Below, piece by piece: positions 1-33,672 of a DNA stretch of 64,000 nucleotides (positions are counted from its first letter, which is position 1; every line of letters begins with the position of its first letter). Source of the DNA: a virus (Duplodnaviria > Caudoviricetes); the IMG/VR virus record IMGVR_UViG_3300033121_002338, positions 1 through 64,000 of that record. One strand, 5' to 3'. The notes below the pieces were generated by a model that saw only the letters and a list, made by a program, of their open reading frames with translations, was not told the DNA's origin and did not search any database. The position numbers were made by a program, and so were the translations under genes.

Positions 1-141
1 GAGGTTGGCCTGGATCGCGGAGTCTAGCAACCACTTGGTGCGTCCCCAACTGGCGGCACTTGGGGCCTTTAGGAAAATTCCTAATGCTTTTTTCTCGCCG
101 TCGTTGCCGAATTGTTTGATGTGGCGGACTAGTGCCCCCAT
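1..141 (-). CDS. partial hypothetical protein running off the left edge
   Basis: Manual translation from ATG at 141: MGALVRHIKQFGNDGEKKALGIFLKAPSAASWGRTKWLLDSAIQANL, open to the window edge and directly downstream of the 155..661 ORF. Confidence 0.4.
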   Translation of the reverse strand, partial: MGALVRHIKQFGNDGEKKALGIFLKAPSAASWGRTKWLLDSAIQANL

Positions 142-154
142 GGCGCGGGCGGCG

Positions 155-661
155 TCACGGACTACTGGGTGGTTTTCGGCGATGATGCTGAGTTTCATTT
201 TTATGCTGGTGAGGACAGCTTCCGTAAGTAATTTTGGCATGACAGCAGTTCTGACATAATACCTCGTACCCCTTTGGGTAGCCGGCTTTTTTGACTTTGA
301 GATATAGCCGGTAGCTGTTGATCTGCTGGCGGTGTTCGCCGCTCAGGCATAAAAATTGGATGGATTTTTCACCGCAGCATTGGCAGGATGGGGGTTGGCC
401 GCCGTAGTGCCAGAGTGCGAGCAGTCTTAGGTCGCTGAGTTTGCTTTTCTTTTCCCGTTGGAGTCTGTTTTGATTTTTGGTTCTGTAGTTCTTTTGTTTG
501 ATGGCGTTGCCGGTTGGGCGGGGGTGTTTTTTGTCGTATTTGGTTTGTTTGCGTCTCTGGCATTGTTTGCAGGGGCTGGTGAGGTGGTTCTTTTTGCGGT
601 AGAAATATTCGTCGGTGGCTGGTTTTCCTTGTTTGCATTTTCGGCAGGTTTTGAGTTCCAT
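155..661 (-). CDS. HNH-like zinc-finger endonuclease, possibly degenerate
   Basis: N-terminal CRKC...CKQC, then CQCCGE and a C-terminal VLCQNCCHAK...GSCPH typical of phage HNH proteins; the expected DH motif reads FLCLSGEH. Confidence 0.6.
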   Translation of the reverse strand: MELKTCRKCKQGKPATDEYFYRKKNHLTSPCKQCQRRKQTKYDKKHPRPTGNAIKQKNYRTKNQNRLQREKKSKLSDLRLLALWHYGGQPPSCQCCGEKSIQFLCLSGEHRQQINSYRLYLKVKKAGYPKGYEVLCQNCCHAKITYGSCPHQHKNETQHHRRKPPSSP

Positions 662-693
662 GATGTGGTCTCTTGCTGTGCCGTCTATGTATT

Positions 694-1731
694 TTATGGA
701 TGTGATGGAGATGGTTGGTTCGCGAGAGGTTGGTGTTTGTGGACCTTCTTGATTTGGTGTTGCCTACTGGGTTCTCGCGGAGGTGTTGTTGGACCACGGC
801 GAGAACCGGCCAGAAGCCGAGTCCCTGTTGCAACGCCTCTTGGGGCGTTGCCCAAATTGAAAGCTGACCGGGTCGCCGCCGCTGATCTGTGTTGCAACGC
901 CTCTTGGGGCGTTGCCCAAATTGAAAGAAAGTATCTGTCAGAATGGTAGCGCTCCACGAAAGTTGCCTTGGCCTGGTCCCTGGCGCGCTGGTTCTCGAAC
1001 CTCGCCCCGTGCCAATATTCCCCGTGGACTTCCACAAGAATGCTACGTGGTTCACCCGGCACACAGAAGTCGAACGGCCAATGGCCAACCAGATGCTGCC
1101 GCTCGTAGCCCACCCCGAGGTTATCCAGGACAGCGGCCAGGCTATCTTCGAGCTTGCTCTTATTGTTTGATAAGACGGCCTTTGTATATTCTGGGCGACT
1201 CCAAGCGGCTTTGACTCCGGCGCTGATTTTGAGCTTGGTGCCCGGGGAGCGAAGCTTCTCGACCAGCTTGGCCCGATATTCTGGATTGTTCCAGTTCGTC
1301 CTGGCCGCGTTGGCTAATTTTGGCCTGTAACCCTCTCTGGCTACATTGAGATTGGATAGGCGTTTGGCCTCGTTCGAGCGGAGGGCGGTGACAGCCTGGG
1401 TGTGGTAGGTGCTGTTGTTGGCGTGGGCGGCGGCAATTCCGGAGGAGACCTTGGCGCGGTACTCGTCCGACTGCCATCGTTCGCTTGTGAGGCGCTGTTG
1501 TGCCTCACTCTGCTTCTGGGCGTAGTCTTGATTTTTCCAGACCGATCGTTGTTTGCAGCTACGGCAGGTGGGGTGGAAGGGTTTGCCGTGGTTGGGTCGG
1601 ATGGAGCTGAGTTTGAAGGTGAGTTCGTTTTTGCATTCGGTACAGAGCACGATGACTGGCATTTTGCCGGTGATTGTACTCTGGTCGTGTCCGAATTTGG
1701 CTTTGGTTTTTGGCCAATCTATGAAGCACAC
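694..1731 (-). pseudogene. broken Vsr/DUF559-like endonuclease gene (nuclease A): lacks its first 5 codons and the Mom domain
   Basis: Close paralogue of 7637..9097 (WPFDF...ILVEVHGEYWHG.RFENQR.RDQAKATF.ERYHSD). Homology stops at about 928, where the CRISPR-like repeat begins. The missing MNNAQ start lies at 7066..7052. Confidence 0.8.
827..927 (+). CRISPR. CRISPR-like mini-array: two identical 37-bp repeats and one 27-bp spacer
   Basis: GTTGCAACGCCTCTTGGGGCGTTGCCCAAATTGAAAG at 827-863 and 891-927, with an internal 8-bp stem (GCAACGCC/GGCGTTGC) and an ATTGAAAG 3' end. Spacer ctgaccgggtcgccgccgctgatctgt. No cas genes in the window. Confidence 0.75.
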
Positions 1732-1838
1732 TGGAATTCGTGGTCCTGAACCTCGCGGTGCTCCGGACCGGGGCGAGCTTCTCGGCCGAAGAGGTCCTGG
1801 CCGCGGGCGGCGTGGTTGCTGCTGCCACGGCGGTCTAA
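1732..1838 (+). pseudogene. orphan copy of the last 35 codons of the tail sheath gene
   Basis: (V)EFVVLNLAVLRTGASFSAEEVLAAGGVVAAATAV* versus the sheath end VEFVVLNLAVLRTGASFSAEEVLAAAGIVSASTSV*: same length, many synonymous changes. Confidence 0.9.
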
Positions 1839-1857
1839 CAGTAACTAGTCACATCGG

Positions 1858-1890
1858 GCGAGGGCCGGACATCCGGCCCTCGCTCTGTTT
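1858..1890 (+). terminator. probable intrinsic terminator
   Basis: 12-bp stem gcgagggccgga-ca-tccggccctcgc followed by tctgtttt, just after the orphan sheath stop. Confidence 0.6.
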
Positions 1891-1916
1891 TCAGAGGTGC
1901 TGGCCATAAATATAAT

Positions 1917-2327
1917 ATGAGGAGGCCAGCCGTGAATCCAAGCCTGCCATTAGTCGTCAGTAAGCTCCAAAGCTGCCCGAATTTTCGGACCCTCTACGCT
2001 TTGGAGAAGACTTTCAATCAAGTCGGCCTGACTATCCAACACACACCTCAGAACTGGATGGTCCTATGCCGGATCGAAGAGGGTCATGCTGTGGCGACCG
2101 AGGTCCTTGAGGATTTCGTGTTCGTTGGCAAACTGGAGGATCAGTCTAAGCCACTCCCCGCTGATCTGCGAGAAAGCATCATCAATTTCGTAGAGAACGC
2201 TGCCGGGGACGCTGCTGTTGTTGGGCACAACGGCCGCATCTGGAAAGATGGTGTACAAATCTACGATAAAGCTTTGTTTGTGGTCAACGAGGATGTGAAG
2301 AAGATCACTCAAACCCTCATGGACTAA
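1917..2327 (+). CDS. hypothetical protein
   Basis: 136-aa ORF that begins a tightly packed plus-strand cassette, preceded by AT-rich ataaatataat. Confidence 0.7.
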   Translation: MRRPAVNPSLPLVVSKLQSCPNFRTLYALEKTFNQVGLTIQHTPQNWMVLCRIEEGHAVATEVLEDFVFVGKLEDQSKPLPADLRESIINFVENAAGDAAVVGHNGRIWKDGVQIYDKALFVVNEDVKKITQTLMD

Positions 2328-3104
2328 ATGGCAATCCGTGCACCACGAGTGAGTTACCGGGTCGGCAAACACGCTCTGACCCAGCAATCTGCGGTCCTGC
2401 GGAAGCAGTCCGCCAGCAGCGGTGCCGTAGCCAATGACGCCTTTTTCCATTCTTTCTTCGGCCGCATTGCTCTTCAAGATGGCTCCACTGTCGAACTGAC
2501 AAGCCGATTCAACAAACAGACCGGGGAAATAGAACTAGACATCCCGGAAAAGGCCATTGACGCTCTTAACGGCATCAGTAAAGGCGACCGTCTCAAAGAG
2601 TATCTGGCATGGCTAACAGATGGTGCTGCTGGGAACCCAGGTAGTGGTGCCGGGCACATGCAGACGGTCACTGCAATTGGGCCATTCGCGACTACTGATG
2701 GTGGTGGGAACCCGCAGCTTTTGGCATCTCTCGAATTCCCAACCGACACCCTTGATGAGAACACTGCGGTGCTCTTTAGGGTATGGGGGAGGTTCGCAGC
2801 TAACGATAAAGCCAAGAGTGCTCACTTGTACCTGAATGGAGCACAGTTTGGTGAAAACGATTTGACTATCTACCCTAACGGGTTGGACTGGAGTTTTTCT
2901 GGCACCATCGCGATCGACCCAAATGGGACCAGTCACCCAATTATCACCGATGGTCTGGTAGGCAACAGCCCGCAGAACACCAGGGCGACATTCGTCCCTG
3001 GAGTTCTTGGTAATGACTGGTTGTTTACGGTCTTTGGCCATAGTGACGAAAGTCCGTTGGCGGCCGACGACGTAATCTGCGATGCCATTATGGTGAGGTA
3101 CTAA
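2328..3104 (+). CDS. hypothetical protein, probably virion-associated
   Basis: 258-aa ORF abutting its neighbours, with a beta-rich Gly/Thr/Asn C-terminal half. Confidence 0.65.
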   Translation: MAIRAPRVSYRVGKHALTQQSAVLRKQSASSGAVANDAFFHSFFGRIALQDGSTVELTSRFNKQTGEIELDIPEKAIDALNGISKGDRLKEYLAWLTDGAAGNPGSGAGHMQTVTAIGPFATTDGGGNPQLLASLEFPTDTLDENTAVLFRVWGRFAANDKAKSAHLYLNGAQFGENDLTIYPNGLDWSFSGTIAIDPNGTSHPIITDGLVGNSPQNTRATFVPGVLGNDWLFTVFGHSDESPLAADDVICDAIMVRY

Positions 3105-3919
3105 TGGCACGTACCACTTGCATTTTGCCAACAAACCGAGCCGGTCGGACTGCTCGATATTATATCTGCGATTTCATTAGCGATCTGCCTACTGCTATCC
3201 GCCAAGGTGACATGGCGGTTGTTGGTAGTGACTGGTACGTGTCCACCGCCACACAGTGGGTCTTAGTTGGTAGTGGAACACCAGCCGACACCACGGCGGC
3301 TACCGGTATCATCAGTCAGGTGAATGTCAGTGCTAGCCAGATTCGGCGTGGTCAACCAGTGGCCAGCGTGGTTGGCGGTGTCGTTCTCGCCTCCAACGTT
3401 GACTTGAGCTTTCCGGCTGTTGGGGTGGCGGCTGAGGGTATCGGCGTCGGTACTATGGGGCGGATTGTCACTGCTGGGATCGTTGATCTTAACGACTGGA
3501 CATATCCAGCAGGAACTGCGAATCTCGTACAAGGTGCCGCATACTACCTTGGTCCAGATGGTTCGATTGTTGTTGGTCGCCCGGCTACAGTCGTTCAGCC
3601 AATCGGACAAGCCGTGACAGCTACGGCCCTTTCATTGGGTCTGGCACCGATCCGTCCGGCCGCATTGGACCATATCCACGTTACGGAGAACATGACACTG
3701 ACGGTGACTGACATCGCCAATAAGTTTGTGCTTCTTGCACAGACGCCCCTCACCGGCAGCGTCATTATGGCGATTCAAGGGGCAGCTTTCCAAAGGCAAG
3801 GCTATGCCTGGGCTGCTGATGGGACCAATCCGAAGAAAATTACGTGGTCCGGCTTCACACTGGATGGACTTCTAGAGGCTGGTGACAACATAACTTTCAT
3901 GTACCAGAAGCTCCCATGA
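3104..3919 (+). CDS. putative virion decoration or fibre-associated protein
   Basis: 271 aa. The middle resembles capsid-cementing domains (AVGVAA...GRIVTAG...LVQGAAYYLG); the C-terminal ~80 aa resemble the C-terminus of 3916..5202. Confidence 0.55.
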   Translation: MARTTCILPTNRAGRTARYYICDFISDLPTAIRQGDMAVVGSDWYVSTATQWVLVGSGTPADTTAATGIISQVNVSASQIRRGQPVASVVGGVVLASNVDLSFPAVGVAAEGIGVGTMGRIVTAGIVDLNDWTYPAGTANLVQGAAYYLGPDGSIVVGRPATVVQPIGQAVTATALSLGLAPIRPAALDHIHVTENMTLTVTDIANKFVLLAQTPLTGSVIMAIQGAAFQRQGYAWAADGTNPKKITWSGFTLDGLLEAGDNITFMYQKLP

Positions 3920-5202
3920 GCAAGACCCTTGCGAAGTTCATCAACTACGACCCGCAGTCGCTGACGTCTATCTCCAACGCTCTGACAGTGCTGCTGGATG
4001 CGGCTGGGGCTCTGGAGAAGACCAACAACGGCGTCAACGTCAAGACTGCTGGTATCACCTATGCAATGTTGGCTGACGGCAGCGTCATTGCCCGCACTGA
4101 CCTGACTCGCACCATCACCGCGGTGTGGGATTTCGGTACCGCTCTACCGACTGCTTCGGTAGACCCGACCAGTGCCAACCAGTTGGTCCGTAAGGCGTAC
4201 GTCGATGCCGCGATCCAGGGCTTGGATGTCAAGCCTAGCGTGCGGGCCGCATCTACCGGGAACCTGACCCTCAGCGGCCCGCAGACCGTCGATAGTGTGG
4301 TGTTGATCGCTGGTGACCGCATCCTGGTGAAGGATCAGAGCACCGCCAGTCAGAATGGCATCTACTTCGTGGCAGCCGGTGCCTGGAGCCGGGCCGTTGA
4401 CGCCGATGCCGCTGCTGAACTCTCGGCCGGAACTTTCGTCTTCGTCGAAGAAGGTACTGTCAATGCCGACACCGGCTGGGTGATGACCACCGATGGGGCT
4501 GTCACTCTCGGTACCACCGCCATCAACTGGACTCAGTTCAGCGGAGCCGGTCAGGTGATTGCCGGGGCAGGTCTGACCAAGACCGGCAACACCATTGATC
4601 TTGTGGCTGGTGACAACTCGCTGACGGTTGGGGCTAACAGCGTCTCGGTCAATTTGGACTCGGCATTCTTCAGTGTTGGCGGCAGCGGGATCACCCTGGT
4701 CAACGGTGCGATCACCGCCACCCAGATTAACTCATCCGCTCTGGGGAACGGTCTGACCGGCGGTAGTGGCACTGCGATTAGCGTGGTGGCTGCTGCTTTC
4801 ATCACCGGCGGAGCGGTCGAGATTGATGGCGACAAGCTCAACATCACCTGGGACCCGACCAACTATACGCCGGCTACGGTCCCAACCTTCAGCACCAGCG
4901 TCGATGACCTGACCTCCCACCTGAAGGGCATCGACACCAAGTTGGGTCAGTTGAGCGTGACACGACGGGTGGAGACATTCACCCTGGCTGGTGGGGACAT
5001 CACGAACAAGTATGTAACGCTGGCAAATACGCCGGCTGCGGCTGGTCGCGTCATTCTGCTGGTGAAGGGTGCTCCTGCTCAGTTCTATGGCGACGACTAC
5101 GCCATGGACGGGACGGTGACGACCAGACTGACGTGGGATAGTCTGGCCTTAGATGGCATCCTTGCCAGTGGTGACAAACTGACTGTTGAGTATGATGCGT
5201 AA
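3916..5202 (+). CDS. phage fibre or head-decoration protein
   Basis: Contains GLDVKPSVRAASTGNLTLSGPQTVD...GDRILVKDQ...QNGIY...WSRA.D...GTFVFVEEG, a module common in phage fibre proteins, and AGAGLTKTGN linkers. Confidence 0.7.
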   Translation: MSKTLAKFINYDPQSLTSISNALTVLLDAAGALEKTNNGVNVKTAGITYAMLADGSVIARTDLTRTITAVWDFGTALPTASVDPTSANQLVRKAYVDAAIQGLDVKPSVRAASTGNLTLSGPQTVDSVVLIAGDRILVKDQSTASQNGIYFVAAGAWSRAVDADAAAELSAGTFVFVEEGTVNADTGWVMTTDGAVTLGTTAINWTQFSGAGQVIAGAGLTKTGNTIDLVAGDNSLTVGANSVSVNLDSAFFSVGGSGITLVNGAITATQINSSALGNGLTGGSGTAISVVAAAFITGGAVEIDGDKLNITWDPTNYTPATVPTFSTSVDDLTSHLKGIDTKLGQLSVTRRVETFTLAGGDITNKYVTLANTPAAAGRVILLVKGAPAQFYGDDYAMDGTVTTRLTWDSLALDGILASGDKLTVEYDA

Positions 5203-5516
5203 TGGCTAAGCTCGACCCGCGATTTCTGCCGCCAGGAGTAACCGGCACCACCTTCTACACGACGGAGGTGGACTTCGGTGCTACTCCGGTGTATAGTAAG
5301 AAATTCGAAATAGCCCATGCCGGGGCGTTGGTGACGAACAAGGTGATGATTGTTCAGTCGGCGGCGGCTGCGACTGGTCGGGCGGCTGATGAGAACGAAA
5401 TGGACGCCATTGTCGGGTCTGGGTACGTCTCAGGAGCAGGTATCATTACTCTGTTCTTGCATGGACTCCCAGGGCCGGTTACTGGCAAGTACAACGTCAA
5501 CTACCTGATCGGGTGA
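5202..5516 (+). CDS. small virion structural protein (hypothetical)
   Basis: 104 aa, translationally coupled to the upstream fibre gene. Confidence 0.6.
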   Translation: MAKLDPRFLPPGVTGTTFYTTEVDFGATPVYSKKFEIAHAGALVTNKVMIVQSAAAATGRAADENEMDAIVGSGYVSGAGIITLFLHGLPGPVTGKYNVNYLIG

Positions 5517-5520
5517 TACC

Positions 5521-6939
5521 ATGGCACAGATCCAGAGCGGGGCAAGTTCCGATCTCCTCACCATCGATCCTGGTGCGAAGGGGGCTCGTGCTGTTCTGTA
5601 TGATGCCGATGGTAACCCCGTCTGCCTGCTGAACAAGCTCAGTGAATCGGGAATCTCGAAGGCTGGCCTACCTATCGGCGGGTGGAATGATGGTAACTTC
5701 CGCATCGCCAGGACTGACCGCATCGGCTCGCTCGGCACAACGTGGCACAATACCATGTTCCATGAGCCGGTCGAGGGTGCAACGCTCAATAGCTCGGCGT
5801 GGGTCAATACCAACACCACGTTCGTCACTGCTCAGACCGCGACTGGTATCAACCTCAACAACACCGCTCTGACTACGGCCAACGCCGTAACGACGTTCAT
5901 CTCTCTGAAACAGTTCTTGAAGACCCAGAGGACGCCTCTGGCAGTTCGTTTCCGTGCCCGTATCTCGACGGTGGCAAACTCGGTTGCCGAACTCGGCTTC
6001 GGTTTACCCTCTGGCACCACCGCGATCGCCAACGGAGCCTACTGGCAATTCACGACTGGTGGGGCTGTACAGCCCGTGCTGACCATCAACGGCACAGATA
6101 TCACTGGTACGAACGTGGCCGGATCTTTAACCGGAACCAACTACTATACATTCGATATTATCGCAGACGACGATTCGGTGAAATTCACCATCCAGGACAG
6201 CAACACCGGCATCGTCCTCAGTGAACAAGAACTAACGGTCCCGTTGGGCCAGTCGCGGCTGTGGGCGGTGACTCACCTCCCAATCTTCTGCCGTGTCTAC
6301 AACGGAGCGATCGCCCCGGCCTCTGCTCCGGTCTTCCTTCTGACCGATGCTTACGTGTCCGCCCTCGATGCGAACAGGAACAAACCTTGGGCTCACGCTC
6401 TTGCCTCGATGGGTAAGACTGCCCTTTACTCTCCGACTGCTTTTACGCAGACTCAACAGTTCGCCAACAGTGCGGCCCCTGCGTCGGCCACATTGTCCAA
6501 CACCGCGGCCGGCTACACCACTCTTGGTGGTCTATTCCAGTTTGCGGCTATTGCCGGTGCCGCCACTGACTACCTGTTGTTCAGTTTCACGGTGCCATCT
6601 CCATATCAGTTGGTGGTGACTGGTCTGTCGATCGATGCTTGGAACACGGGGGCTGCCGTGGCGACAACCCCGACCCTGATGGTCTGGGGGTTGGGTACGA
6701 ACGGCACCGCAGCGAACCTGAACACGGGTAACTTCATCAGGACTCCGATCGGGTCTCAGTCGCTCCCGATCGGAGCGGTGGTGGGTGCCAACGTTCAGCA
6801 GATCGTGCGACAGTTCCAGACCCCGGTGGTATGTGAGGCTGGACGCCAGTTCGCGGTGATCCTCCGGATGCCCATAGGAACCGCAACGGCCTCTCAGATC
6901 GTACAAGGCTCTGTTAGCATCGACGGGTACTTCGAGTAA
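5521..6939 (+). CDS. putative virion structural protein with a lectin-like beta fold
   Basis: 472-aa Thr/Gly/Ala-rich, beta-strand-rich ORF that ends the cassette. Confidence 0.6.
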   Translation: MAQIQSGASSDLLTIDPGAKGARAVLYDADGNPVCLLNKLSESGISKAGLPIGGWNDGNFRIARTDRIGSLGTTWHNTMFHEPVEGATLNSSAWVNTNTTFVTAQTATGINLNNTALTTANAVTTFISLKQFLKTQRTPLAVRFRARISTVANSVAELGFGLPSGTTAIANGAYWQFTTGGAVQPVLTINGTDITGTNVAGSLTGTNYYTFDIIADDDSVKFTIQDSNTGIVLSEQELTVPLGQSRLWAVTHLPIFCRVYNGAIAPASAPVFLLTDAYVSALDANRNKPWAHALASMGKTALYSPTAFTQTQQFANSAAPASATLSNTAAGYTTLGGLFQFAAIAGAATDYLLFSFTVPSPYQLVVTGLSIDAWNTGAAVATTPTLMVWGLGTNGTAANLNTGNFIRTPIGSQSLPIGAVVGANVQQIVRQFQTPVVCEAGRQFAVILRMPIGTATASQIVQGSVSIDGYFE

Positions 6940-6959
6940 GCGGGCAGCGGTCTGGGAAA

Positions 6960-7051
6960 AGACGGAAGCACCGGTGGTGTTCGAGAGCATCGGGCGGGGA
7001 ACAGGTGCGTTCTCCCAGGCTGAGCTTCTGGTCCTCCAGAGTGCCAGCCGG
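6960..7051 (+). pseudogene. orphan fragment of the tail tube gene (codons ~25-55) with a 1-nt deletion
   Basis: RRKHRW/VFESIGRGTGAFSQAELLVLQSASR versus tube RRKHRWVFESIGRGTGAFSQSELLFLQSASR, with synonymous divergence. Confidence 0.85.
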
Positions 7052-7174
7052 CTGTGCGTTATTCATGGAAACCCAATACTACAATTATGGTTGCTCGGTT
7101 CAATATATTTTGTCCCATTCCTCAAGGAGAAGGAAATGTCCGCTCAACCAGCGAACACCGACATCAAGGTCTAG
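7052..7174. repeat. duplicate of the divergent-start region 9083-9206 (nuclease start MNNAQ on minus, target gene start MSAQPANTDIK on plus)
   Basis: 7122-7168 is identical to 9154-9200 over 47 bp, and the upstream parts are similar. This copy ends in a stop codon at 7172-7174. Confidence 0.9.
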
Positions 7175-7203
7175 CAGAATAGCGCGGGACGAAGTTGCCG
7201 GCA

Positions 7204-7620
7204 AAGCCTGCTGGAGACAGCTAAGGTGAGCACGACTATGGTAGCGACCATTTCGACTGTACCAAGCCTGCCGGGAACAGCTAAGGACGAGCACGAACTG
7301 GCCGTGATGAAGAAGCGGCAGGCGCGCTGACCGACAAAGTCTGCTGGGAATAGCTAAGGATGAGCACGCTACCCGGATGCTGTATGGCCACCTGTTCCGG
7401 CGGACCGATAACGCCTGCCGGGAGCAGCTAAGGATTAGCACTGAGATACCGCTCCTGTTTGACCAGCTGACAGAGCCTGCTGGCGGCGACTAAGGATGGC
7501 ACGGTAAGCTCAGGATAGGCATGCGTCGTCCGGGTGATAATCCTCACTCTGGAATGCACAATAATAGGCAAGCCGCTAAGGGAGCACGAACCCGCGAGCC
7601 AGTAAACTAAGGATCGCACA
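7204..7620. repeat. degenerate repeat-spacer array: five ~33-bp repeats and two partial ones, with unique 28-40-bp spacers between the full repeats
   Basis: Consensus AAGCCTGCYGGGAACAGCTAAGGATGAGCACGA at about 7204, 7264, 7337, 7411 and 7472; CTAAGG..GCAC cores again at about 7575 and 7606. Confidence 0.8.
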
Positions 7621-7636
7621 AATCCCTCCCGCCCTG

Positions 7637-9097
7637 TCATAGGTCGATCACAAATCTCGTCTTCGTACCCCCATCGCATCTAGTATAACCATGCTTGGCG
7701 GCATAATCCACTTCACTCATCCCCATTTTCTTAGACTGGTTCCACAGAGTCTTCTTATGCATAATGAACCCATCGCGATCTCTGTAGAAGTAATCGGCCC
7801 TGATCACTCCATCTAATCTCCAGTTGCTCGCCTTGTAAATCGTCCCGGCGTGCCCGTAGGTGCTGTCGGCGAAAGTCATCAATTTCTTGACCGGCAGAAA
7901 CTGGTAGGTCCTGGCCAGGAACCAGGACACCAGATTATGCTTGCGGTAACAGGGATGCACCGCGAGTCTAGTCAATTCCATGATCTCTCGATACTTCACC
8001 CCCTGCTTCTTCGCTGATTCCACCCTGGTTGGGTAACAGTATCTGGCCACCCCGACGATCGTATCGCCGTCCATCGCCGCCACACTGATACCACTCCTGC
8101 CCCCTGAGGCGGTGTGGTGGTATTTGCTGAGGAATAGATTGGCTTTGCTGGCCTCGATCGTCTTGATCTCAAGCTGCGAGAATTTGTAGTCAACAGCTTG
8201 GGGTTGGCGGCCGAACCAGCCGGCGACCAGATGGTGGATACGTTCTGGCGATAGGAATTCGTGCTCCCAGAGTACCTTCAATTCATACTTGTCGGAGTGG
8301 TACCGCTCGATAAAGGTGGCCTTGGCCTGGTCCCTTGAGCGTTGGTTCTCGAATCTCTCGCCGTGCCAGTATTCACCGTGGACCTCGACGAGAATATCAC
8401 GCGGGGTGTGTGGGATGTGGAAGTCGAAAGGCCAGTGGCCGACGGTATGCTGGCGATCGTAGCCGATCCCCAAATTGTCAAGTATAGCTGCCAGATTCTC
8501 CTCTAGCTTGCTCTTGCTGTTCAGCAGGACCGCCTTCGAGTATTCCGGGCGGCTCCAGGCGGCTCTAACCCCGGTGCTGATCTTGAGCTTGGTGCCCGGC
8601 GAGCGGAGTTTCTCGACCAATTTGGCCCGGTACTGCTGGTCTGCCCAATTCTTCTTCGCGGCTGCTACTAATTTGCCCCGGTAGCCATCCCGGACGGCAT
8701 CTAGATTCTGCAGACGTTTGATCTCGTTCGACCGCATGGCGGCGACCGCCTGGGCGCGATAGGTGTTGTCGGTGTGGGCCGCCGTCACTCCGGCTACGAT
8801 CTTGGACCGATATTCATCGGATTGCCAGCGTTCGGCCGTGAGGCGCTGCTGAGTCTGGGCTTGTTTCTGGGCGTATTCGGGCCGCTCCCAGACCGACTTC
8901 TGCTTGCAACTGCGGCAGACGGGGTTGAATGGTTTGCCGTGGTTGATCCGGACTGAGCTGAGTTTGATGATCAATTCTGACTTGCATTCGGCGCAGCGGA
9001 CGATGACCAGGTTCTTCCCGACCGCCTGGGCCAGCCCGTAGCCGAACCTGGCCTCGGTTTCCGCCCAGTCAACCAGATGCACCTGAGCGTTATTCAT
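7637..9097 (-). CDS. Zn-finger/NUMOD3-like + Vsr/DUF559-like endonuclease + Mom-like GNAT fusion (nuclease B)
   Basis: CAEC...CRSC, W..xEYR repeats, FDF...VEVHGEYWH...RD, then FLSKYHH...ELTRLAVHP...NLVSWFLA...TFADSTYGHAGTIYKASNW. Confidence 0.8.
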   Translation of the reverse strand: MNNAQVHLVDWAETEARFGYGLAQAVGKNLVIVRCAECKSELIIKLSSVRINHGKPFNPVCRSCKQKSVWERPEYAQKQAQTQQRLTAERWQSDEYRSKIVAGVTAAHTDNTYRAQAVAAMRSNEIKRLQNLDAVRDGYRGKLVAAAKKNWADQQYRAKLVEKLRSPGTKLKISTGVRAAWSRPEYSKAVLLNSKSKLEENLAAILDNLGIGYDRQHTVGHWPFDFHIPHTPRDILVEVHGEYWHGERFENQRSRDQAKATFIERYHSDKYELKVLWEHEFLSPERIHHLVAGWFGRQPQAVDYKFSQLEIKTIEASKANLFLSKYHHTASGGRSGISVAAMDGDTIVGVARYCYPTRVESAKKQGVKYREIMELTRLAVHPCYRKHNLVSWFLARTYQFLPVKKLMTFADSTYGHAGTIYKASNWRLDGVIRADYFYRDRDGFIMHKKTLWNQSKKMGMSEVDYAAKHGYTRCDGGTKTRFVIDL

Positions 9098-9167
9098 GGA
9101 ACCCCAATACCAAAATTATGGTCTCTTCGTCCAATATATTTTGTCCAATTTCTTCAAGGAGAAGGAA

Positions 9168-9569
9168 ATGTCCGCTCAACCAGCGAACACCGACATCAAG
9201 ATCTACCGCAACGTGCGGGCGCAGCGGCAGCCGCTGTGGTTCGATAGTGTGGCTTCGCTCATCAAGCGGCTGCGTCCGCTGGTGATGGCCATCCCGGGCC
9301 ATGAGGTCCGCGTTGGTGTCATCACCCGCGACACCAGCACCAAGGATTTCAGCCCGTACATGGGTGAAGCACGCAGCAACGCCACCCGGGGTTTCCCGAT
9401 CGTGGTCGGTCTGAACAAGCAAGTGTCCTTCGCCACCGCGCAGACCCAACTGCCGGACGTGGATTTCGCGTTCCAGATCGGCAGCGATCGCTTCATCGCC
9501 AACACCACGGTCGGCCTCGACGGCGACCTGCACAGCGATGCCCGAGACCTCACCGCCGACCAACCGTAA
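9168..9569 (+). CDS. hypothetical protein (MSAQPANTDIK...), target of the duplication
   Basis: Strong RBS (aaggagaagga) before ATG 9168, and followed by a terminator. Confidence 0.75.
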   Translation: MSAQPANTDIKIYRNVRAQRQPLWFDSVASLIKRLRPLVMAIPGHEVRVGVITRDTSTKDFSPYMGEARSNATRGFPIVVGLNKQVSFATAQTQLPDVDFAFQIGSDRFIANTTVGLDGDLHSDARDLTADQP

Positions 9570-9588
9570 TAACGTTCTCAGAGCGGAG

Positions 9589-9618
9589 GAGAGGGGGCAA
9601 TTGCCCCCTCTCTTTTTT
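9589..9618 (+). terminator. intrinsic terminator
   Basis: 24-bp palindrome gagagggggcaattgccccctctc followed by a T run. Confidence 0.8.
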
Positions 9619-11101
9619 GTTGGTGATTGTGTTGCTTAGATCGAACATGGCCAATTCGGGAGCCGCAATGACCTGGAAATCCTACGATTGGCTAAACCAG
9701 AAATACAATGTCGAGATGATGTCATGGCCGGAGATCGCCAAACTAGTTGGGGTGTCCAGCACCATGGTCCGGCATGTGGCCAAGCAATTAGCAATTCCGT
9801 CGAGATCGAACCGGGAAGCCGCCCTACTACACAACCATCTGCCATTAGCAATCATACGCACGAAATACGAAAGCGGCAGTAGCATAGCCCGGCTGGCGGC
9901 GGAGTACGGAGTGGTGCCAAGTGTAATGAGGACCAATTTGTTGGCCGCCGGTGTCTCGCTGCGGACACGTGAAGTTAGCCGCCAACTATCGTTAGATCTG
10001 GCAGCCGATAAGCTGCCGAGGACAGTATGGCGTAATCGGGAATGGTTTGTTGAACATTACGCTGACCATTCCGTGCTGGAACTAATGGAAATCACTGGTT
10101 GGTCGAAGACCTATTTAATTGAAACTGCCAAGGAACTCAACATAAGTCTGCGGTCTTGTAGCGATGCTATAAAACTGAAATGGAACGATGACCAATACCG
10201 GCATAAACACGCGGAATATCTGAGCAACAATCCCAGAGTTAGCGGGCTGCAGCTGAAGTTTTATGACTTGTTGGTACAAGCCGGGATTGATTTTGAGCCG
10301 GAATCGGAGAAGACTAAAATTGGTTATTATAATTTCGATGCGCTGCTGCCGGCGTCAAAAATTCTGATCGATGTGCAAGGGACATATTTTCATTCGAAGA
10401 AAGCGGCCATCAGCCGCGATCGTCAGAAATTCGACTACATCAACAATTACCATCCCGATTACAGAATAGTGTATGTGTGGGAGTCTGACATAAATGACTG
10501 TCCGGAATTGGTTGTTCGCAACCTCCAGCTTAGAATCAACACGCCGCCATTGGCTGATTTTCGTTTCGAGGATGTGACAGTAGCGCCGGTCGGTTTTGAA
10601 GAGTGTAAGTCATTTCTGGACGCTTATCATTATATTGGCGGTAATAGGGGTGGATTAGCTGTGGGGGCCAAGCTTGGGAAAGAGATGGTCGGTGCTGTTG
10701 TTTACGCTCCGCCGCTTCGGCAGAATTTGAGTGGCTGCTATGGGACCGATGGCTTTCTAGAATTGTCCCGTTTGTGTGTCGCGCCGACGAGGCATAAGCC
10801 AAATTTTGCGTCGTGGCTCATAGCACGGTCATTGCGGCATGTTGATGCGCCGTTGGTTGTCGCGTATGCCGACAAGACTGCCGGGCACTGCGGTGGGGTG
10901 TATCGTGCTGCTAACTTCCAACTGCACCACGAAATAAAGCCGGACTACTGGTATGTGAACGATGACGGATATGTTCTGCACAAGAAAACTCTTTATAATC
11001 GGGCTGTGAGATCCCAGTTGAGAGAGGCCGAGTACGCCGTCAAATTCGGCTACCGGAAGCAATTCGGGCTACCCAAGTTGGCGTTCGTGTTCCGTAGATA
11101 A
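9617..11101 (+). CDS. HTH + Vsr/DUF559-like endonuclease + Mom-like GNAT fusion
   Basis: HTH-like repeats, FDALL...IDVQGTYFH...RDRQK, then FLDAYHY...ELSRLCV...NFASWLIA...AYADKTAGHCGGVYRAANF. The true start may be ATG 9647 or 9668. Confidence 0.8.
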   Translation: MLVIVLLRSNMANSGAAMTWKSYDWLNQKYNVEMMSWPEIAKLVGVSSTMVRHVAKQLAIPSRSNREAALLHNHLPLAIIRTKYESGSSIARLAAEYGVVPSVMRTNLLAAGVSLRTREVSRQLSLDLAADKLPRTVWRNREWFVEHYADHSVLELMEITGWSKTYLIETAKELNISLRSCSDAIKLKWNDDQYRHKHAEYLSNNPRVSGLQLKFYDLLVQAGIDFEPESEKTKIGYYNFDALLPASKILIDVQGTYFHSKKAAISRDRQKFDYINNYHPDYRIVYVWESDINDCPELVVRNLQLRINTPPLADFRFEDVTVAPVGFEECKSFLDAYHYIGGNRGGLAVGAKLGKEMVGAVVYAPPLRQNLSGCYGTDGFLELSRLCVAPTRHKPNFASWLIARSLRHVDAPLVVAYADKTAGHCGGVYRAANFQLHHEIKPDYWYVNDDGYVLHKKTLYNRAVRSQLREAEYAVKFGYRKQFGLPKLAFVFRR

Positions 11102-11130
11102 GCCGTTCGTTTTAACCAAGAGGTCACGAT

Positions 11131-11598
11131 ATGCGCCGGGCTATTCTCGTCGGGCTTTTCCTCATCGTCACCGCCGCCCCGGCCGCTGCCCAGTTCCGCG
11201 GCCCCCTCGCCTCCCCATCTCAGGCCACCCGTTATCTCCCGCAGCCGCGTTTTCCCCGCCTGGCTGCTTTCGCCCAACCGGCGGCACCGTTGTTTAACCG
11301 CCCCGGTTATGTGCTCCCCGGGGTTAATAGTGGGCGTCCGCTCGCCAGGGTTCTGCCTAAGGTCATTCAAGGTGCTATGGGGGTGATGACTTATTTTAAT
11401 GTGCCGGCTTTGACTGCGGTCGGGAGTGCTGTGCCGCCGACTATTCGTCTGGCTCACGTACTGTTGAATGGGAGCCCGACTCCGGGCCAGCCGTTGCAGA
11501 CTTTGTTGTTCGTGGCTTCGCCGACAGCGGCGGAGGTGCGTGCGCGAATGAGCCAGCGAGTGGCGAGCGGGGAGCGTTTGTTTTTTAGGCGTCGCTGA
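11131..11598 (+). CDS. putative exported protein
   Basis: Signal-peptide-like N-terminus MRRAILVGLFLIVTAAPAAA; Pro/Arg/Ala-rich. Confidence 0.55.
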   Translation: MRRAILVGLFLIVTAAPAAAQFRGPLASPSQATRYLPQPRFPRLAAFAQPAAPLFNRPGYVLPGVNSGRPLARVLPKVIQGAMGVMTYFNVPALTAVGSAVPPTIRLAHVLLNGSPTPGQPLQTLLFVASPTAAEVRARMSQRVASGERLFFRRR

Positions 11599-11643
11599 TG
11601 ATATTGCCCTTCTCACCAAAATTACAATAATTGAGGAGGGCGT

Positions 11644-12183
11644 ATGGCAGCGACTATTAAGATTAACCGTTTGACTGGCGCTGGGCCGACCAAGACTGAT
11701 ATAACCAGCGCCAATACGGTGGCCAACGCCACCGACAGCCATCAATCAACTGCCTCAAGCTCGAACAACCCGATCCGGATTCCCAGCAGCGGTACGAATT
11801 ATAGTTTTTGGGTCGCAACCAGATTAGAGTGTTCGGTAGCGCCGGCTGGGACAGTTAATAATATCCGTTGGTTTACTGACGGTTCTAACACCTTTGGCAC
11901 CGGGGTGTCCTGTAAGGTTCAGACGGCCACCTCATATATCCAGGCCACTGGTACTACTGGGACCACTGGCGACGTTCTTAATACTTCCAACTATTCATCT
12001 CTGGCTGGTGTCACCGCCAACGCTTTTGGTTACACTTCCGGGGCGACACTGTCGGTGTCTGGTTCGACTTCGGGCACCGGGGATTTCGGCGATTTGGTGG
12101 TGTATCAACTGGAAGTGATTAGTACGGCCTCACCGGGCGTGACCGGCCAGGAGACCTTTACCTGGATGTATGACGAGACTTAA
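11644..12183 (+). CDS. putative virion structural protein
   Basis: RBS gaggagg; 179-aa Thr/Ser/Gly-rich beta protein. Confidence 0.65.
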   Translation: MAATIKINRLTGAGPTKTDITSANTVANATDSHQSTASSSNNPIRIPSSGTNYSFWVATRLECSVAPAGTVNNIRWFTDGSNTFGTGVSCKVQTATSYIQATGTTGTTGDVLNTSNYSSLAGVTANAFGYTSGATLSVSGSTSGTGDFGDLVVYQLEVISTASPGVTGQETFTWMYDET

Positions 12184-15076: not shown

Positions 15077-15089
15077 AGGATATGTTCCA

Positions 15090-19191: not shown

Positions 19192-19207
19192 GCTTGTTGA
19201 TTTCCTG
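19165..19207. repeat. 43-bp direct repeat, copy 1
   Basis: tggcctaatcagaacaagaagaaatgagcttgttgatttcctg, identical to 22151-22193. Confidence 0.95.
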
Positions 19208-22575: not shown

Positions 22576-25422
22576 ATGGCAGTTTTCCTTTCGCCCGGAG
22601 TCTTCCCCCGGGAAATCGACCTAAGCATTCTCCCGACCGCTGTTGGCCCGCTGCGGCCCGCGTTCATCGGTACCGCCCAGAAGGGTCCGCTGAACGAAGC
22701 TGTCTTCATCAGCACCTCCCAACAGGCTCTCGACACCTTTGGTGAGCCATTCCCAGAATCCTACCTGATGTACGCGGTGCTCAGTTACCTCGAAGAGGGG
22801 AACGAGTGCTACGTGATGCGGGTCGGCGTCGAATGCCAAGAAGGGCAACCCGACGAATTATCCTCAATCTGCATCGACACCAGCGGCGCCCGCGGCACCG
22901 GTTGGGGTCGCATCCCGCTGTTCACTGGGATTGACTACGGTCGGCTGAACCTGCGGGTGGTTAGCACCGACGCCCCGCTCGCCTTTCATGCCGCCAGCGT
23001 CAGCGATATCGACTACCAGGACGTGGTGGTGAGCACCACCGATGGTGCGACTAGCGCCACCCTGAACATCGTCGGCACCTACACCGGCGACATCGACGAC
23101 TCGTTCGTCATGGTGATCACTGGGGCTCCAACCGCCTCCGACGCCGCTAGCGTTGAAGGTGCCACCTTCCAAGTCATCCGCAACTCGGACGGTGAAGTGG
23201 TCGCCTCCGGGACCATGGACGATTTCGACTACAACGGCACCAGCCAGGCCATCGACCTCGAAAACGGTCTGACTGTCCAAGTCGTAGTCACCGCCGGTGT
23301 GATCGACGAGAACGACACTTTCAGCTTCAAGGTGGCTCCGGACAACCGGAAATTCACCGTTGATGTTGAGGGGGTGGCCGGCACTCAGCACACGATGCCG
23401 ACCGCCACCTACACCACCGCCGCCGACTTCGTCACCGCTTTCAACAACCTACTGTCGGGTGACGGCTACCTGATGGTGGAGTTCACCCTGGAAGACGGCG
23501 AAACCGTCATCCCCCAACTGCGGACCACGGTTGCCGGCAACCGAATCCAGCTCATGGGGACCTCAGGGTTTGCCCTGGAAGTCGGCAGCCAGCAGTATGC
23601 CTGGGATATCCCACGGTCTTACCTGCTCGGCGTGGACCCAGGCCCGTTCGATATCACCGCCCAAAACAACCGGGTCAAACTCAACCTGGTCGGGACCGAC
23701 ACCACCAAGACAATTGAATTCAACGTTCCAGTCGGGCTGGCCCAGACTGCCGATAGCCTGGCCACCTCCGTCAACGTGACCGGCGTCGTGGCCGGCGAAA
23801 CCCTGTACGAGTCGTTCGCCCTGACGGTCCCGGGCGGCTCAGAGCACGTGGTTATCGTCACCAGCCCCGACCACGAATTCGACACGCTCTCGCTCCTGGC
23901 AACCTTCTCCAACCTCAAGACCCTCCGCTTCGCCGAGGAACTTGAAATCCCCTACCCGTACCAACGGGCCTACCGGGGCTTTCGCGACAACCGGCTAGTC
24001 CTGCCGGCCTCAGGGCAGATCACCGCCGCCACCCCGCTGTCCTGCGAGACCTCACCGCTCTCCAGTGACTGCGCCTCCGACACCGCCTACTTCCAGAACG
24101 TGGTGGGCTGGCTGGTCGCCCCGTCACCGGGGACCTGGGTGGACGGCGTGACCGCCTCGCTCGAAGTCTTCGTGACCGGCACCACCCCAGCCGGCCGCTA
24201 CAAGCTGACCGTCAAGGACGCCAACCGTTCCGTCCTCGAAATCGTAGAGAACGTCAGCTTCGACAAACGGGATGACCGCTACATCGGCAACGTCGTCAAC
24301 CCCGGCACCAAGTACGGTGGCCGGAACGGCAGCGCCTACGTCCAATGGGAAGAGCGGCCAGCCTTCCTCAACAACAACGCCAGCGCCACCGACTTCGAAG
24401 TCCGCTACCCATCCCAGTTCACCGAACGGGCCTACCTCGGCCAGGCCAACGGCATCCCGACCGACCCGGCCTTCAGCTCTGAACTGGACGCCGCGGTGAT
24501 CGGCAACCCAGCCACCTCCAGTGGCCTGTACGCCTTCCAAAACCCGGAAGCGGTAGACATCAACCTGCTCTGCACCCCCGGTTTCTCAACCGGTGCGGTG
24601 ATCGGCACCGCACTCCAGATGTGTGAATCCCGCGGCGACGTCCTCTACCTGGTGGACCCGCCGTTCGGCCTGCGGCCACAACAGGCAGTGGACTGGCACA
24701 ACGGCATGCTGCTCTCCGACCTGCGGGCAGCCATCAACTCAAGCTACGGTGCCCTCTACTGGGGCTGGGTGCGGATCTTCGACCAGTTCAGCAACGACGA
24801 AATTTGGGTCCCGCCCTCCGGCCACGTGACCGCCGTCTTTAGCCGGACCGCACGGGATGCCGAGTCCTGGTTCGCCCCGGCTGGCCTCAAGCGTGGCCGG
24901 CTTCTGACCGCGCTGGACGTCGAATACTCGCCGACCCAGGGCGAGCGCGATCTGCTCTACGGTTCTGGGAACGCCGTCAACCCGATCGTCAAGTTCCCGC
25001 AAGACGGGATCGTGATCTGGGGGCAGCGGACCTTACAGCGGACCCAGTCGGCCCTGGACCGCGTCAGCGTCCGGATGCTGATGATTCACATTAAGAAGAA
25101 CTTGGTCCGCCTACTGCGGAACTTCATCTTCGAACCGAACGACAAGATCCTGTGGAAGCAGGTCATCGCCACTATCGACCCCTTCCTGGCTGATATCCAA
25201 GCTCGGCGAGGCCTCCAAGCCTACCGGGTGATTGTTGATGAGACCAACAACACTCCGGAGAGAATCGATCGAAACGAACTGTGGATCTCAGTCTTCCTGA
25301 AGCCCACGCGGACGGTCGAATTCGTGGTGCTGAACCTGGCCGTGCTGCGGACCGGGGCCAGCTTCTCGGCCGAGGAGGTCCTGGCTGCCGCAGGGATCGT
25401 TTCGGCTTCAACTTCAGTGTAA
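22576..25422 (+). CDS. contractile tail sheath protein (T4 gp18-like)
   Basis: FLSPGVFPREID...AFIGTAQKGP; NSSYGALYWGW...WVPPSG...WFAPAGLKRG...RDLLY...VNPIV...WGQRTLQ...ALDRVSVR; 948 aa. Confidence 0.95.
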   Translation: MAVFLSPGVFPREIDLSILPTAVGPLRPAFIGTAQKGPLNEAVFISTSQQALDTFGEPFPESYLMYAVLSYLEEGNECYVMRVGVECQEGQPDELSSICIDTSGARGTGWGRIPLFTGIDYGRLNLRVVSTDAPLAFHAASVSDIDYQDVVVSTTDGATSATLNIVGTYTGDIDDSFVMVITGAPTASDAASVEGATFQVIRNSDGEVVASGTMDDFDYNGTSQAIDLENGLTVQVVVTAGVIDENDTFSFKVAPDNRKFTVDVEGVAGTQHTMPTATYTTAADFVTAFNNLLSGDGYLMVEFTLEDGETVIPQLRTTVAGNRIQLMGTSGFALEVGSQQYAWDIPRSYLLGVDPGPFDITAQNNRVKLNLVGTDTTKTIEFNVPVGLAQTADSLATSVNVTGVVAGETLYESFALTVPGGSEHVVIVTSPDHEFDTLSLLATFSNLKTLRFAEELEIPYPYQRAYRGFRDNRLVLPASGQITAATPLSCETSPLSSDCASDTAYFQNVVGWLVAPSPGTWVDGVTASLEVFVTGTTPAGRYKLTVKDANRSVLEIVENVSFDKRDDRYIGNVVNPGTKYGGRNGSAYVQWEERPAFLNNNASATDFEVRYPSQFTERAYLGQANGIPTDPAFSSELDAAVIGNPATSSGLYAFQNPEAVDINLLCTPGFSTGAVIGTALQMCESRGDVLYLVDPPFGLRPQQAVDWHNGMLLSDLRAAINSSYGALYWGWVRIFDQFSNDEIWVPPSGHVTAVFSRTARDAESWFAPAGLKRGRLLTALDVEYSPTQGERDLLYGSGNAVNPIVKFPQDGIVIWGQRTLQRTQSALDRVSVRMLMIHIKKNLVRLLRNFIFEPNDKILWKQVIATIDPFLADIQARRGLQAYRVIVDETNNTPERIDRNELWISVFLKPTRTVEFVVLNLAVLRTGASFSAEEVLAAAGIVSASTSV

Positions 25423-25427
25423 TAACC

Positions 25428-28396: not shown

Positions 28397-28398
28397 GT

Positions 28399-31473: not shown

Positions 31474-31548
31474 ATGCCAGGGTTCAACATCATGCCGTAT
31501 GGCGGCGGCTATTCAGCCCAAGGCCCGTCAAATACGGCTGAGACGAGG
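31474..31548 (+). pseudogene. orphan first 25 codons of the tail tube gene
   Basis: MPGFNIMPYGGGYSAQGPSNTAETR with its own RBS (ggagg). 25/25 aa identical to 33088-33162, with 14 nucleotide differences, all synonymous. Confidence 0.95.
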
Positions 31549-33032: not shown

Positions 33033-33087
33033 GGTGGCTCCGAGAAAATCTAATATAGTAACTTTCCAGGTCGAGCAGAGGGCGAAA

Positions 33088-33672
33088 ATGCCAGGCTTTA
33101 ATATCATGCCCTACGGCGGGGGATACTCGGCCCAAGGCCCTTCCAATACGGCTGAAACGCGCAGGAAGCATCGCTGGGTTTTCGAATCGATCGGGCGAGG
33201 TACTGGGGCCTTCTCCCAGTCAGAGTTGCTGTTCCTGCAGAGCGCCTCGCGCCCCAGCTTTAAGTTCGAGGAAGCGGACCTGCACCACAACCAAGAGGTG
33301 GCCCGGTTTGCTGGTAAGCAAGACTGGGACCCGGTCACGCTGACCTGGTATGATGTCCAGCAAGACCCCGACGTGTCCCGCGGGATTTATCACTGGATCG
33401 AGACTGTGGTTAACATGTTCTCGATTAAGGTGGCTCACCCCCGTCTTTACAAGCGGACCGCCAGCCTGTTGATGATTGACGGTGCTGGTCAGACCTCTGA
33501 ATCGTGGACCATGCTGGGGACCTGGCCCTCGAACTGTAACTGGCAGGAACTGGATTATGCTTCGAATGATATTCTTACTATCGAAGCGACCATGCGTTAT
33601 GACCGGGCGGTTCGGAACTGCGTCGGTGCTCCGGCGCCGCAACCGATCGCGCCAAACTGCCCACAAATCTAA
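33088..33672 (+). CDS. tail tube protein (T4 gp19-like)
   Basis: ETRRKHRWVF...RPSFKFEE...GKQDWDPVTLTWYD...WTMLGTWPSN..WQELDY...IEATMRYDRA. Confidence 0.85.
   Translation: MPGFNIMPYGGGYSAQGPSNTAETRRKHRWVFESIGRGTGAFSQSELLFLQSASRPSFKFEEADLHHNQEVARFAGKQDWDPVTLTWYDVQQDPDVSRGIYHWIETVVNMFSIKVAHPRLYKRTASLLMIDGAGQTSESWTMLGTWPSNCNWQELDYASNDILTIEATMRYDRAVRNCVGAPAPQPIAPNCPQI

Follow-up and report, generated by a model that had tools for sequence, protein, structure and literature searches.

The 64,000-nucleotide (nt) stretch analysed here, referred to as the window, is the first 64 kb of IMG/VR record IMGVR_UViG_3300033121_002338, a linear entry of 83,341 bp from a virus of the Caudoviricetes. Near its start, a block of 5,320 nt (1732..7051) splits a homing-endonuclease gene of the Vsr-like/Hef type, designated gene A, exactly between codons 5 and 6 (Table 1). 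CheckV rates the record as 23% complete, which points to a fragment of a very large (giant) uncultured phage. PHROG and Pfam scans of the 83-kb contig revealed virion genes of T4-like character, that is a gp20 portal, a gp19-type tail tube, a gp25/J baseplate protein and a gp15-like protein, as well as eleven free-standing nuclease genes of one family, the broken gene A included. Eight of these nuclease genes are located in the window and three further on (two in L042, the third being 9617..11101). A megablast search with positions 1..12000 returned no match and hence no close relative among the GenBank phages.

The part of gene A that lies to the left of the block is an open reading frame (ORF) whose translation begins with VCFIDW, and the first five codons of the gene are found on the far side of the block. 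The neighbouring paralogue, gene B (7637..9097, minus strand), begins with MNNAQVHLVDW, and alignment of the DNA sequences sets the break at codon 5|6 of the register of gene B. The body of gene A shares 69% identity with gene B over 269 amino acids (aa), the similarity ending at around residue 271. Likewise, positions 7052..7173 are 89% identical to 9083..9205 over 123 nt; they span five gene A codons, its divergent leader and codons 1-12 of the adjacent plus-strand gene X. More distant members of the family, too, have residues preceding the conserved IDW motif. Assignment of this family rests on matches of PHROG 559/3339 ('homing endonuclease'), on a Pfam Vsr match of gene A that stays under the cut-off (E 0.0016, 18.7 bits versus 27) and on a weak match of paralogue B to PDB 3r3p (E 0.024). 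Protein searches with the body of gene A returned only paralogue-level relatives (at most 58% identity outside the contig) and no intact orthologue, and a 32-nt pattern specific for gene A had 0 matches in IMG/VR.

Contigs assembled from public sequencing runs (Logan) could be placed on positions 1..9500 of the window for four runs, designated X1, X2, X3 and X16. X16 has a share of 0.97 and is possibly the source sample; X1 comes from a different study and X3, derived from river water, from a third one. In X3, a single contig of 2,254 nt covers 1056..1731, continues with 7052..7169 and then with 9202..9500, all with 0 mismatches. The joint between 1731 and 7052 omits exactly the 5,320 nt of the block, zero letters fit both sides of it, and X3 cover is absent across 1903..6974. 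Thus, the empty site exists in nature on an otherwise identical backbone, and the filled form arose from it by insertion without loss or duplication of a base. The filled form is itself recovered independently: two X16 contigs (898..3067 and 5497..7151) bridge both joins at a uniform depth of 6-7.6, and an X1 contig (1542..2498) bridges the left join, which argues that the split gene is not an assembly chimera. X2 has no cover in bins 6975..7608 and is therefore uninformative on the right join. The original prediction, made from the sequence letters alone, had proposed a clean split of this gene between codons 5 and 6 with neither bases lost nor target duplicated, and had named junctions without spanning reads as the mark of a chimera. 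The split and its precision are borne out by the register of the five codons at 7066..7052 and by the X3 joint, and assembled contigs do span the junctions.

The block contains six intact ORFs, o1 to o6, between a fragment of a tail-sheath gene and a fragment of a tail-tube gene, and its native place is the interval between these two virion genes. In G001 (L062; a contig of 136,952 bp), gene X is followed by a collinear region and then by a sheath gene, which leads directly into o1; the contig ends just after the beginning of o2. L005/L007, located at the end of an IMG/VR contig of 83,425 bp, carries o2 (from residue 69) to o6, then the tube gene and a collinear tail module. The two contigs end ~190 nt apart inside o2 and their record names share a prefix, and we infer that both represent one and the same phage. 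The insert is ~76–77% identical to G001 and L007 at the nucleotide level, and these contigs thus display the architecture without being the direct donor. A search with the tube gene as query returned 35 loci, in 29 of which the 3' end of the sheath gene and the 5' end of the tube gene are both visible. The gap between the two genes is shorter than 150 nt in 23 of these 29 loci; it is occupied by nuclease genes of the family in four (L008, L017, L018 and L024) and by other content in two. Among all tube-query loci, genes of the cassette were detected in L007 alone; this locus is not counted with the 29, as its contig stops short of the sheath gene. The varied gap content marks the sheath-tube junction as a recurrent insertion site, and the block is the variant content of this junction in one sub-lineage. 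In the window, the corresponding interval (25423-33088) is a hot spot of the nuclease family, harbouring three copies in addition to five other ORFs. An origin of the block within the phage itself is excluded, because the phage's own sheath and tube genes differ from the fragments (90% and ~78% nt identity, respectively) and the six genes have no other copy in the 83-kb contig (best tblastn E 0.15). Thus, of the two sources that had been envisaged, this phage or a related one, only the second stands, and the predicted relatives with the cassette between sheath and tube are found in G001 (sheath-o1-o2) and L005/L007 (o2-o6-tube). Searches with the o2 protein found no relative in IMG/VR or in metagenome contigs, and the o6 alignment found none in metagenome contigs.

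The fragments at both ends can be traced to the base. At the left, the first 60 nt of the insert agree with the G001 sheath gene in 60 of 60 positions and the first 85 in 84, and 1734..1838 matches the phage's own sheath gene (22576..25422) with 90% identity over 71 nt and 86% over 35 aa. As the preceding base in G001 is a G, the donor gene was broken inside a Val codon (G|TG). A terminator-like hairpin and a promoter-like site separate the sheath fragment from o1, and the TAAATATAAT box of the latter site is kept in G001 despite a diverged spacer. At the right, blastn aligned L005 1..4428 with 2532..6962 and L005 4544..4632 with 6963..7050, position 4544 being the first base of tube codon 26. 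That is, the insert lacks 115 nt present in L005/L007, which comprise a spacer, the leader and tube codons 1-25. The remaining tube piece is 90% identical to L005 4544..4632 at the nucleotide level, a 25-aa match to the tube gene (92%) is encoded by 6977..7051, and the encoded amino acids are VFESIGRGTGAFSQAELLVLQSASR, ending with ...QSASR.

With regard to the genes in between, no family match was obtained for o1, o2 and o5 in the PHROG and Pfam scans, whereas o4 matches PHROGs 27782 and 2647 (head decoration) and 11518 (tail fibre) as well as the capsid decoration protein in PDB 9nx3 (E 1.6e-11). The homologues of o3 to o5 in L007 share 81–89% aa identity with dN/dS values of 0.04–0.08; all of o3 to o6 are full length compared with their L007 homologues at dN/dS 0.03–0.08, which are rough values as dS is saturated. 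For o6, identity amounts to 88% with L005 and 52% with a homologue in the distant locus L006, which is flanked by tail-fibre genes. The atlas neighbours of o6 are viral hypothetical proteins in phage-only clusters, a phmmer search of PDB gave no match, and its AlphaFold model (mean pLDDT 44) was not used. By eye, o3 (3104-3919) and o4 (3916-5202) end in a similar domain of ~60 aa (..V.L...P....V.....G..Q..G.DY...G....ITW....LDG.L..GD.....Y). The earlier description of a virion-gene cassette running from a 3' fragment of the sheath gene to a tube fragment is therefore accurate for the sheath part and needs qualification elsewhere: the tube match is genuine but represents codons 26-55 and not the 5' end of the gene, and the virion label suits o4 and o6 but has no counterpart in matches for o1, o2 and o5.

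Table 1. Positions of the interrupted gene A, the parts of the block and the genes compared with them (window coordinates unless L042 is named).
Feature	Position	Strand	Remarks
Gene A body, codon 6 onward	694..1731	-	translation begins VCFIDW; PHROG 559; now a pseudogene
Insert left end: last 36 codons and stop of foreign tail-sheath gene	1732..1839	+	
Terminator-like hairpin	1856..1885	+	13 pairs; consensus match only
Promoter-like site just before o1	1888..1916	+	consensus match only
o1	1917..2327	+	136 aa; 83% aa identity to gene directly 3' of sheath in G001
o2	2328..3104	+	258 aa
o3	3104..3919	+	
o4	3916..5202	+	decoration/fibre-like
o5	5202..5516	+	
o6	5521..6939	+	472 aa; phage-only all-beta protein
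o6 3' flank	6940..6962	+	23 nt, followed by internal junction
Insert right end: donor tail-tube codons 26-55	6963..7051	+	1-nt deletion
Gene A codons 1-5, MNNAQ (ATG AAT AAC GCA CAG)	7066..7052	-	contiguous with 1731 in X3
Gene A leader and dead-end copy of first 12 codons of gene X	7067..7173	.	89% identical to 9098..9205
Gene B unit: repeat array, gene B with its leader, separate copy of gene X codons 1-12	7174..9205	-	absent from X3
Nuclease gene B	7637..9097	-	
Own tail sheath	22576..25422		948 aa
Sheath-tube nuclease	25488..27125	+	
Sheath-tube nuclease	29873..31408	-	
Sheath-tube nuclease	31653..33107	-	
Own gp19-type tube genes	from 33088		Pfam gp19
Nuclease paralogues	7637-9097, 9617-11101, 13487-15169, 25488-27125, 29873-31408, 31653-33107; L042 9123-10574, 18048-19505		

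The joins themselves display next to no homology. At the left, the target sequence ...GCACAC is followed by the donor sequence TGGAATTC with 0 nt in common (G in the donor versus C in the target); at the right, the donor sequence ...AGCCGG is followed by the target sequence CTGTGC, a single C being assignable to either side (0–1 nt in common). Among the 25 longest listed of the 30 inverted-repeat pairs found, none forms terminal inverted repeats at the block ends; the PHROG and Pfam scans produced no match to a transposase, integrase or reverse transcriptase, and Rfam no match at E<=1 in 1..12000. All six ORFs of the block are opposite in strand to the interrupted gene. Homology-free joins without duplication, repeats, recombinase or ribozyme argue that a free fragment was inserted at a break by end joining. 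Four features expected of fragment capture are present, namely an empty site with identical flanks, an intact target, minimal homology at the joins and an identifiable source locus. A further rearrangement was observed in X1, namely a 310-bp deletion (6949..7258) with 1 common letter at its joint, which removes the tube piece, the five codons of gene A, the leader, the dead-end start of gene X and the first part of the repeat array discussed below. In X1, the undeleted form is nearly without depth over 6949..7258. This deletion indicates that end joining recurs at the locus, which decays quickly relative to point substitution.

We consider it probable that a foreign linear fragment was captured at a double-strand break in gene A by non-homologous end joining and that this insertion is recent. 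The parent phage would have resembled X3, with an intact gene A divergent beside gene X. Gene A would then have suffered a double-strand break at codon 5|6, which non-homologous end joining would have sealed, thereby trapping a linear fragment of 5.3–5.4 kb from a co-infecting related phage. This fragment would have been the sheath-to-tube interval of the relative, extending from the last 36 sheath codons through the terminator, the promoter and the six fibre/decoration-type genes to codon 55 of the tube gene. Capture into a double-strand break had already been put forward in the original prediction, and homology-free joins without duplication or loss fit it well.

The main rival is replicative template switching (copy-choice or break-induced replication), in which the polymerase would have jumped from gene A to the tube gene of the relative, proceeded to the sheath gene and returned. 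T4-type phages rely on recombination-dependent replication, and both the T4-like nature of this phage and the retained internal order of the donor are compatible with such a route. However, two switches would be required, each with only 0–1 nt of homology, and the polymerase would have had to come back to its template exactly one base beyond the point of departure, whereas microhomology-driven switching usually leaves at least 2 common bases and small gains or losses. We therefore regard template switching as unlikely. Still less probable is a homology-driven transfer, that is recombination between paralogous nuclease genes flanking the donor block, which would yield a displaced 'HEG-island'. 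Nucleases of the family do flank the sheath-tube interval in this phage and in four of the 29 relatives, and the idea of such islands has been published (PMC10448857). On the other hand, the ends of the block carry no nuclease-gene sequence, the joins fall within the sheath and tube coding sequences, and nuclease genes are lacking at the sheath|o1 boundary in G001 and at the o6|tube boundary in L007. A reversed polarity, in which the window shows the ancestral state and precise excision gave rise to the X3 form, can draw on the fact that two haplotypes only are known, but is hardly credible: excision would have had to restore the reading frame to the base without flanking repeats, the block holds truncated sheath and tube pieces of which relatives possess full copies in native order, and none of 18 relatives has a nuclease gene or the block upstream of gene X. 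An assembly chimera of two co-occurring phages would suit a metagenome-assembled fragment in which gene A lies 0.7–1.7 kb from the contig start; this carries almost no weight in view of the independent contigs across both joins in X16 and the left join in X1, the absence of a common k-mer across the joins and the small chance that random misjoins would fall on adjacent bases of one gene. Finally, a transposon, integrase island or intron, suggested by a discrete block within a gene, deserves equally little credence given the missing target duplication, terminal inverted repeats, mobility-enzyme and Rfam matches and the antiparallel orientation of the block genes.

Three observations connect capture by end joining with the nucleases of the phage. 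First, the target join coincides with the exact centre of a 30-bp pseudo-palindrome, in which 10 of 15 positions are symmetric, including five of the inner six, and a symmetry of at least 10 is reached by 0.115% of the contig positions. The Vsr-like prototype I-Bth0305I is reported to act as a dimer and to cut pseudo-palindromes centrally, adjoining its insertion site, and Hef-type enzymes have been assigned to this family (PMC3239194). The position of the break at the exact centre would thus fit a cut by a site-specific dimeric nuclease. The start of paralogue B is not symmetric (6/15, counted by eye), and scores of 2–7/15, which are unremarkable, apply to tube 25|26, tube 55|56, the sheath break and gene X 12|13. 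Second, the internal 115-nt deletion ends at tube codon 25|26, which is the family's junction in the tube gene: there, the phage's own tube-side nuclease gene has left behind a second tube start, identical over exactly 25 codons (31474..31548 versus 33088..33162). The 115-nt loss can be read as a cut of a donor-type target by a resident nuclease that was healed by end joining, which is suggestive; most simply, this cut would have occurred after capture, because an ectopic target would be cut in every infection. Third, although no nuclease gene precedes gene X in G001, a 16-nt island has been kept there that is identical in 15 of 16 positions (ATG AGT AAC GC.; L062 ~12,970-13,000 corresponding to window 7056-7071) and takes in the ATG of gene A/B and the codons next to it. 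Its score was reached by only 2 of 2000 shuffles. As the island stops just a few bases from the insertion point, breaks may recur at this spot, or it may mark where the mobile unit ends. Each of these three observations is only suggestive. As had been predicted, members of the family adjoin the sheath 3' and tube 5' ends, namely the three genes in the window and those in four of the 29 relatives. However, the accompanying proposal that the block ends are nuclease target sites found no support: the right end (tube 55|56) lies 90 nt beyond the family junction, and neither donor end is at a symmetric site. A duplicated sheath end was found in none of the relatives examined, and the tube sequences of 30 relatives, compared for synonymous 'immunity' changes at the donor break sites, are saturated at synonymous positions.

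In a fuller version of the favoured scenario, the break in gene A would have been made by a site-specific dimeric nuclease, and the homing nucleases resident on either side of the recipient's sheath-tube interval would have cut up the donor DNA. The resident tube-side nuclease may then have cut the ectopic tube target at 25|26, and a second end-joining step may have dropped 115 bp, leaving the copy immune and silent, while the dispensable gene A may have decayed thereafter. In a still bolder reading, phage mosaics would be built by reciprocal nuclease warfare: the resident nucleases would have shattered a nuclease-poor co-infecting relative, and the block, otherwise lost to exclusion, would have been rescued by blunt end joining into a nuclease-made break at the palindromic 5' end of another homing-nuclease gene and trimmed later. 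Selfish nuclease genes would then both cut foreign cassettes loose, as scissors, and take them up as neutral landing pads. We regard this last reading as possible but doubtful.

Several points weigh against these interpretations. A direct donor was not found; a 30-nt pattern specific for the insert had 0 matches in IMG/VR. The junction evidence consists of assembled contigs and not of raw reads, and the right junction is bridged only in X16, which is perhaps the source sample. Ku, LigD and a ligase were not found in the 83 kb scanned (~23% of the genome), and only two haplotypes are available for ordering three events, namely cassette insertion, arrival of the gene B unit and decay of gene A. 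As to the nucleases, the symmetry test was picked after the site had been seen, the target half-site is not enriched in the window (5 matches versus 3.5 expected), and the two break points in the donor, sheath codon -36 and tube codon 55|56, coincide neither with symmetric sites nor with known family junctions. Moreover, I-Bth0305I is reported to leave 2-nt 5' overhangs (PMC3239194), so that simple fill-in should have produced a 2-bp duplication, which is not seen.

The neighbourhood of the insertion has undergone further changes. In X3, the joint between 7169 and 9202 omits 2,032 nt with 4 letters fitting both sides; relative to X3, a unit of 2,032 bp with gene B is thus inserted at codon 12|13 of gene X, and the older start of gene X (7137..7173) has become a dead end that reads MSAQPANTDIKV before a stop codon. 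This unit carries its own gene start, which is the same footprint as at the tube gene, and ordinary homing would account for it if the donor already had that structure, end joining being unneeded. No family member is located upstream of gene X in any of 18 relatives; in G001, ~105 nt separate an endoVII-like gene from gene X. The 3' side of gene B is occupied by an array (~7197..7620) of ~6–7 copies of a ~30-nt motif (..CTGCYGG..AGCTAAGGA.GAGCAC..) with a spacing of 66–74 nt, in some cases of 117–136 nt. The array is confined to this spot in the window and absent from X3, and Tandem Repeats Finder and Rfam detected nothing in 7197..7620. The nuclease paralogues have a Cys-rich N terminus, W..EYR repeats and a Vsr-like core, and at the C terminus a Mom-like (GNAT) domain that matches PF25680 with E 1e-14 to 1e-19. 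X3 has 681 letters in place of 66 in the window (865..930), 113 of which resemble the 3' end of gene B, which indicates that in the window the Mom-like 3' part of gene A is gone as well. The sequence towards the 3' end of this gene (730-1050) is polymorphic altogether: X3 lacks 731..825, and a 64-nt tandem duplication inside gene A of the window (826..863 = 890..927) is present with one copy fewer in X1.

Elsewhere on the contig, the phage's own tube protein (33220-33300) reads ELLFLQ and FEEADLHH, where the relatives have ELLVLQ (30/30) and FEEPEMHH (22/30); these deviant positions fall around and just after the codon at which the captured fragment stops. A 47-nt direct repeat (19165-19211 and 22151-22197, 98% identical) has its second copy ~380 nt upstream of the sheath gene. 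Inteins with LAGLIDADG domains reside in the ribonucleotide reductase ORF (window 55311-60971, 1,886 aa) and in the ORF for a T4-type portal protein (L042 10617-13751, 1,044 aa).

In yeast, non-homologous end joining by Ku/Lig4 captures extraneous DNA such as mitochondrial DNA and Ty cDNA at nuclease-made breaks, usually in pieces shorter than 1.5 kb. The present locus resembles these events in that a foreign linear fragment resides in a site-specific break with 0–1 nt of homology and no target duplication, but here the recipient is a phage genome and the fragment measures 5.3 kb and brings six working genes. Phage mosaicism is attributed to illegitimate recombination in Hendrix-type models, and in agreement with them the novel joint between unrelated sequences survived by hitting a dispensable gene. 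However, such homology-free joints are almost always inferred from old, diverged genomes, whereas here the empty and the filled allele are both preserved with identical flanks.

SegF, SegG and Hef are free-standing homing endonucleases of T4-type phages that act in intronless homing and marker exclusion. The same has been described for MobE (PMC2790892). In keeping with T4-type intronless homing, selfish nuclease genes adjoin essential virion genes, relatives without them would be cut in mixed infection, and presence/absence polymorphism and duplicated gene starts occur at the locus. In contrast, homing copies a nuclease gene to a homologous site via homologous repair, whereas a nuclease-free block was placed here at a non-homologous site ~20 kb from the native locus through homology-free joins, thereby destroying a nuclease gene. 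For HEG-islands, Barth, Dunham & Seed 2023 propose nucleases as vehicles of phage-phage exchange and likewise describe virion-gene cargo between homing-nuclease sites (PMC10448857). Those islands are bracketed by nucleases, occupy the same locus and share >90% identity between phages, while the present block has no flanking nuclease genes in G001/L007, is ectopic and is 76–77% identical to its nearest relatives. With I-Bth0305I and the EDxHD enzymes, gene A and its paralogues appear to share a Vsr-like core, and the target is again a centred pseudo-palindrome, but the matches remain below curated thresholds, the paralogues possess the Mom-like domain and the half-site differs from TTxG-x6-CxAA (PMC3239194). 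SegB, which drives segmental amplification in phage T6, provides a further case in which a break by a homing nuclease leads to a rearrangement that alters gene content; it is reported to involve amplification of a resident locus and no capture of foreign genes (PMC13096335). No comparable capture in phages was among the matches listed in a literature search, which does not establish it as unpublished. Nucleases beside virion genes, marker exclusion, HEG-islands and illegitimate mosaicism are thus of known kinds; what is distinctive is the ectopic, homology-free capture of a nuclease-free six-gene block into a nuclease gene with both alleles preserved.

Taken together, the donor locus, the target, the joins and the later trimming are all readable to the base at this locus. 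In addition, the locus provides defined substrates on which the specificity of the uncharacterised Vsr/Mom-type nuclease family could be addressed. If the link to the nucleases is true, the role of homing endonucleases would go beyond propagating themselves and the DNA next to them: they could release multi-gene virion cassettes from competitors and offer harmless sites for their insertion, and genes for fibre or decoration proteins would gain a route between phages even where the target has no homology.

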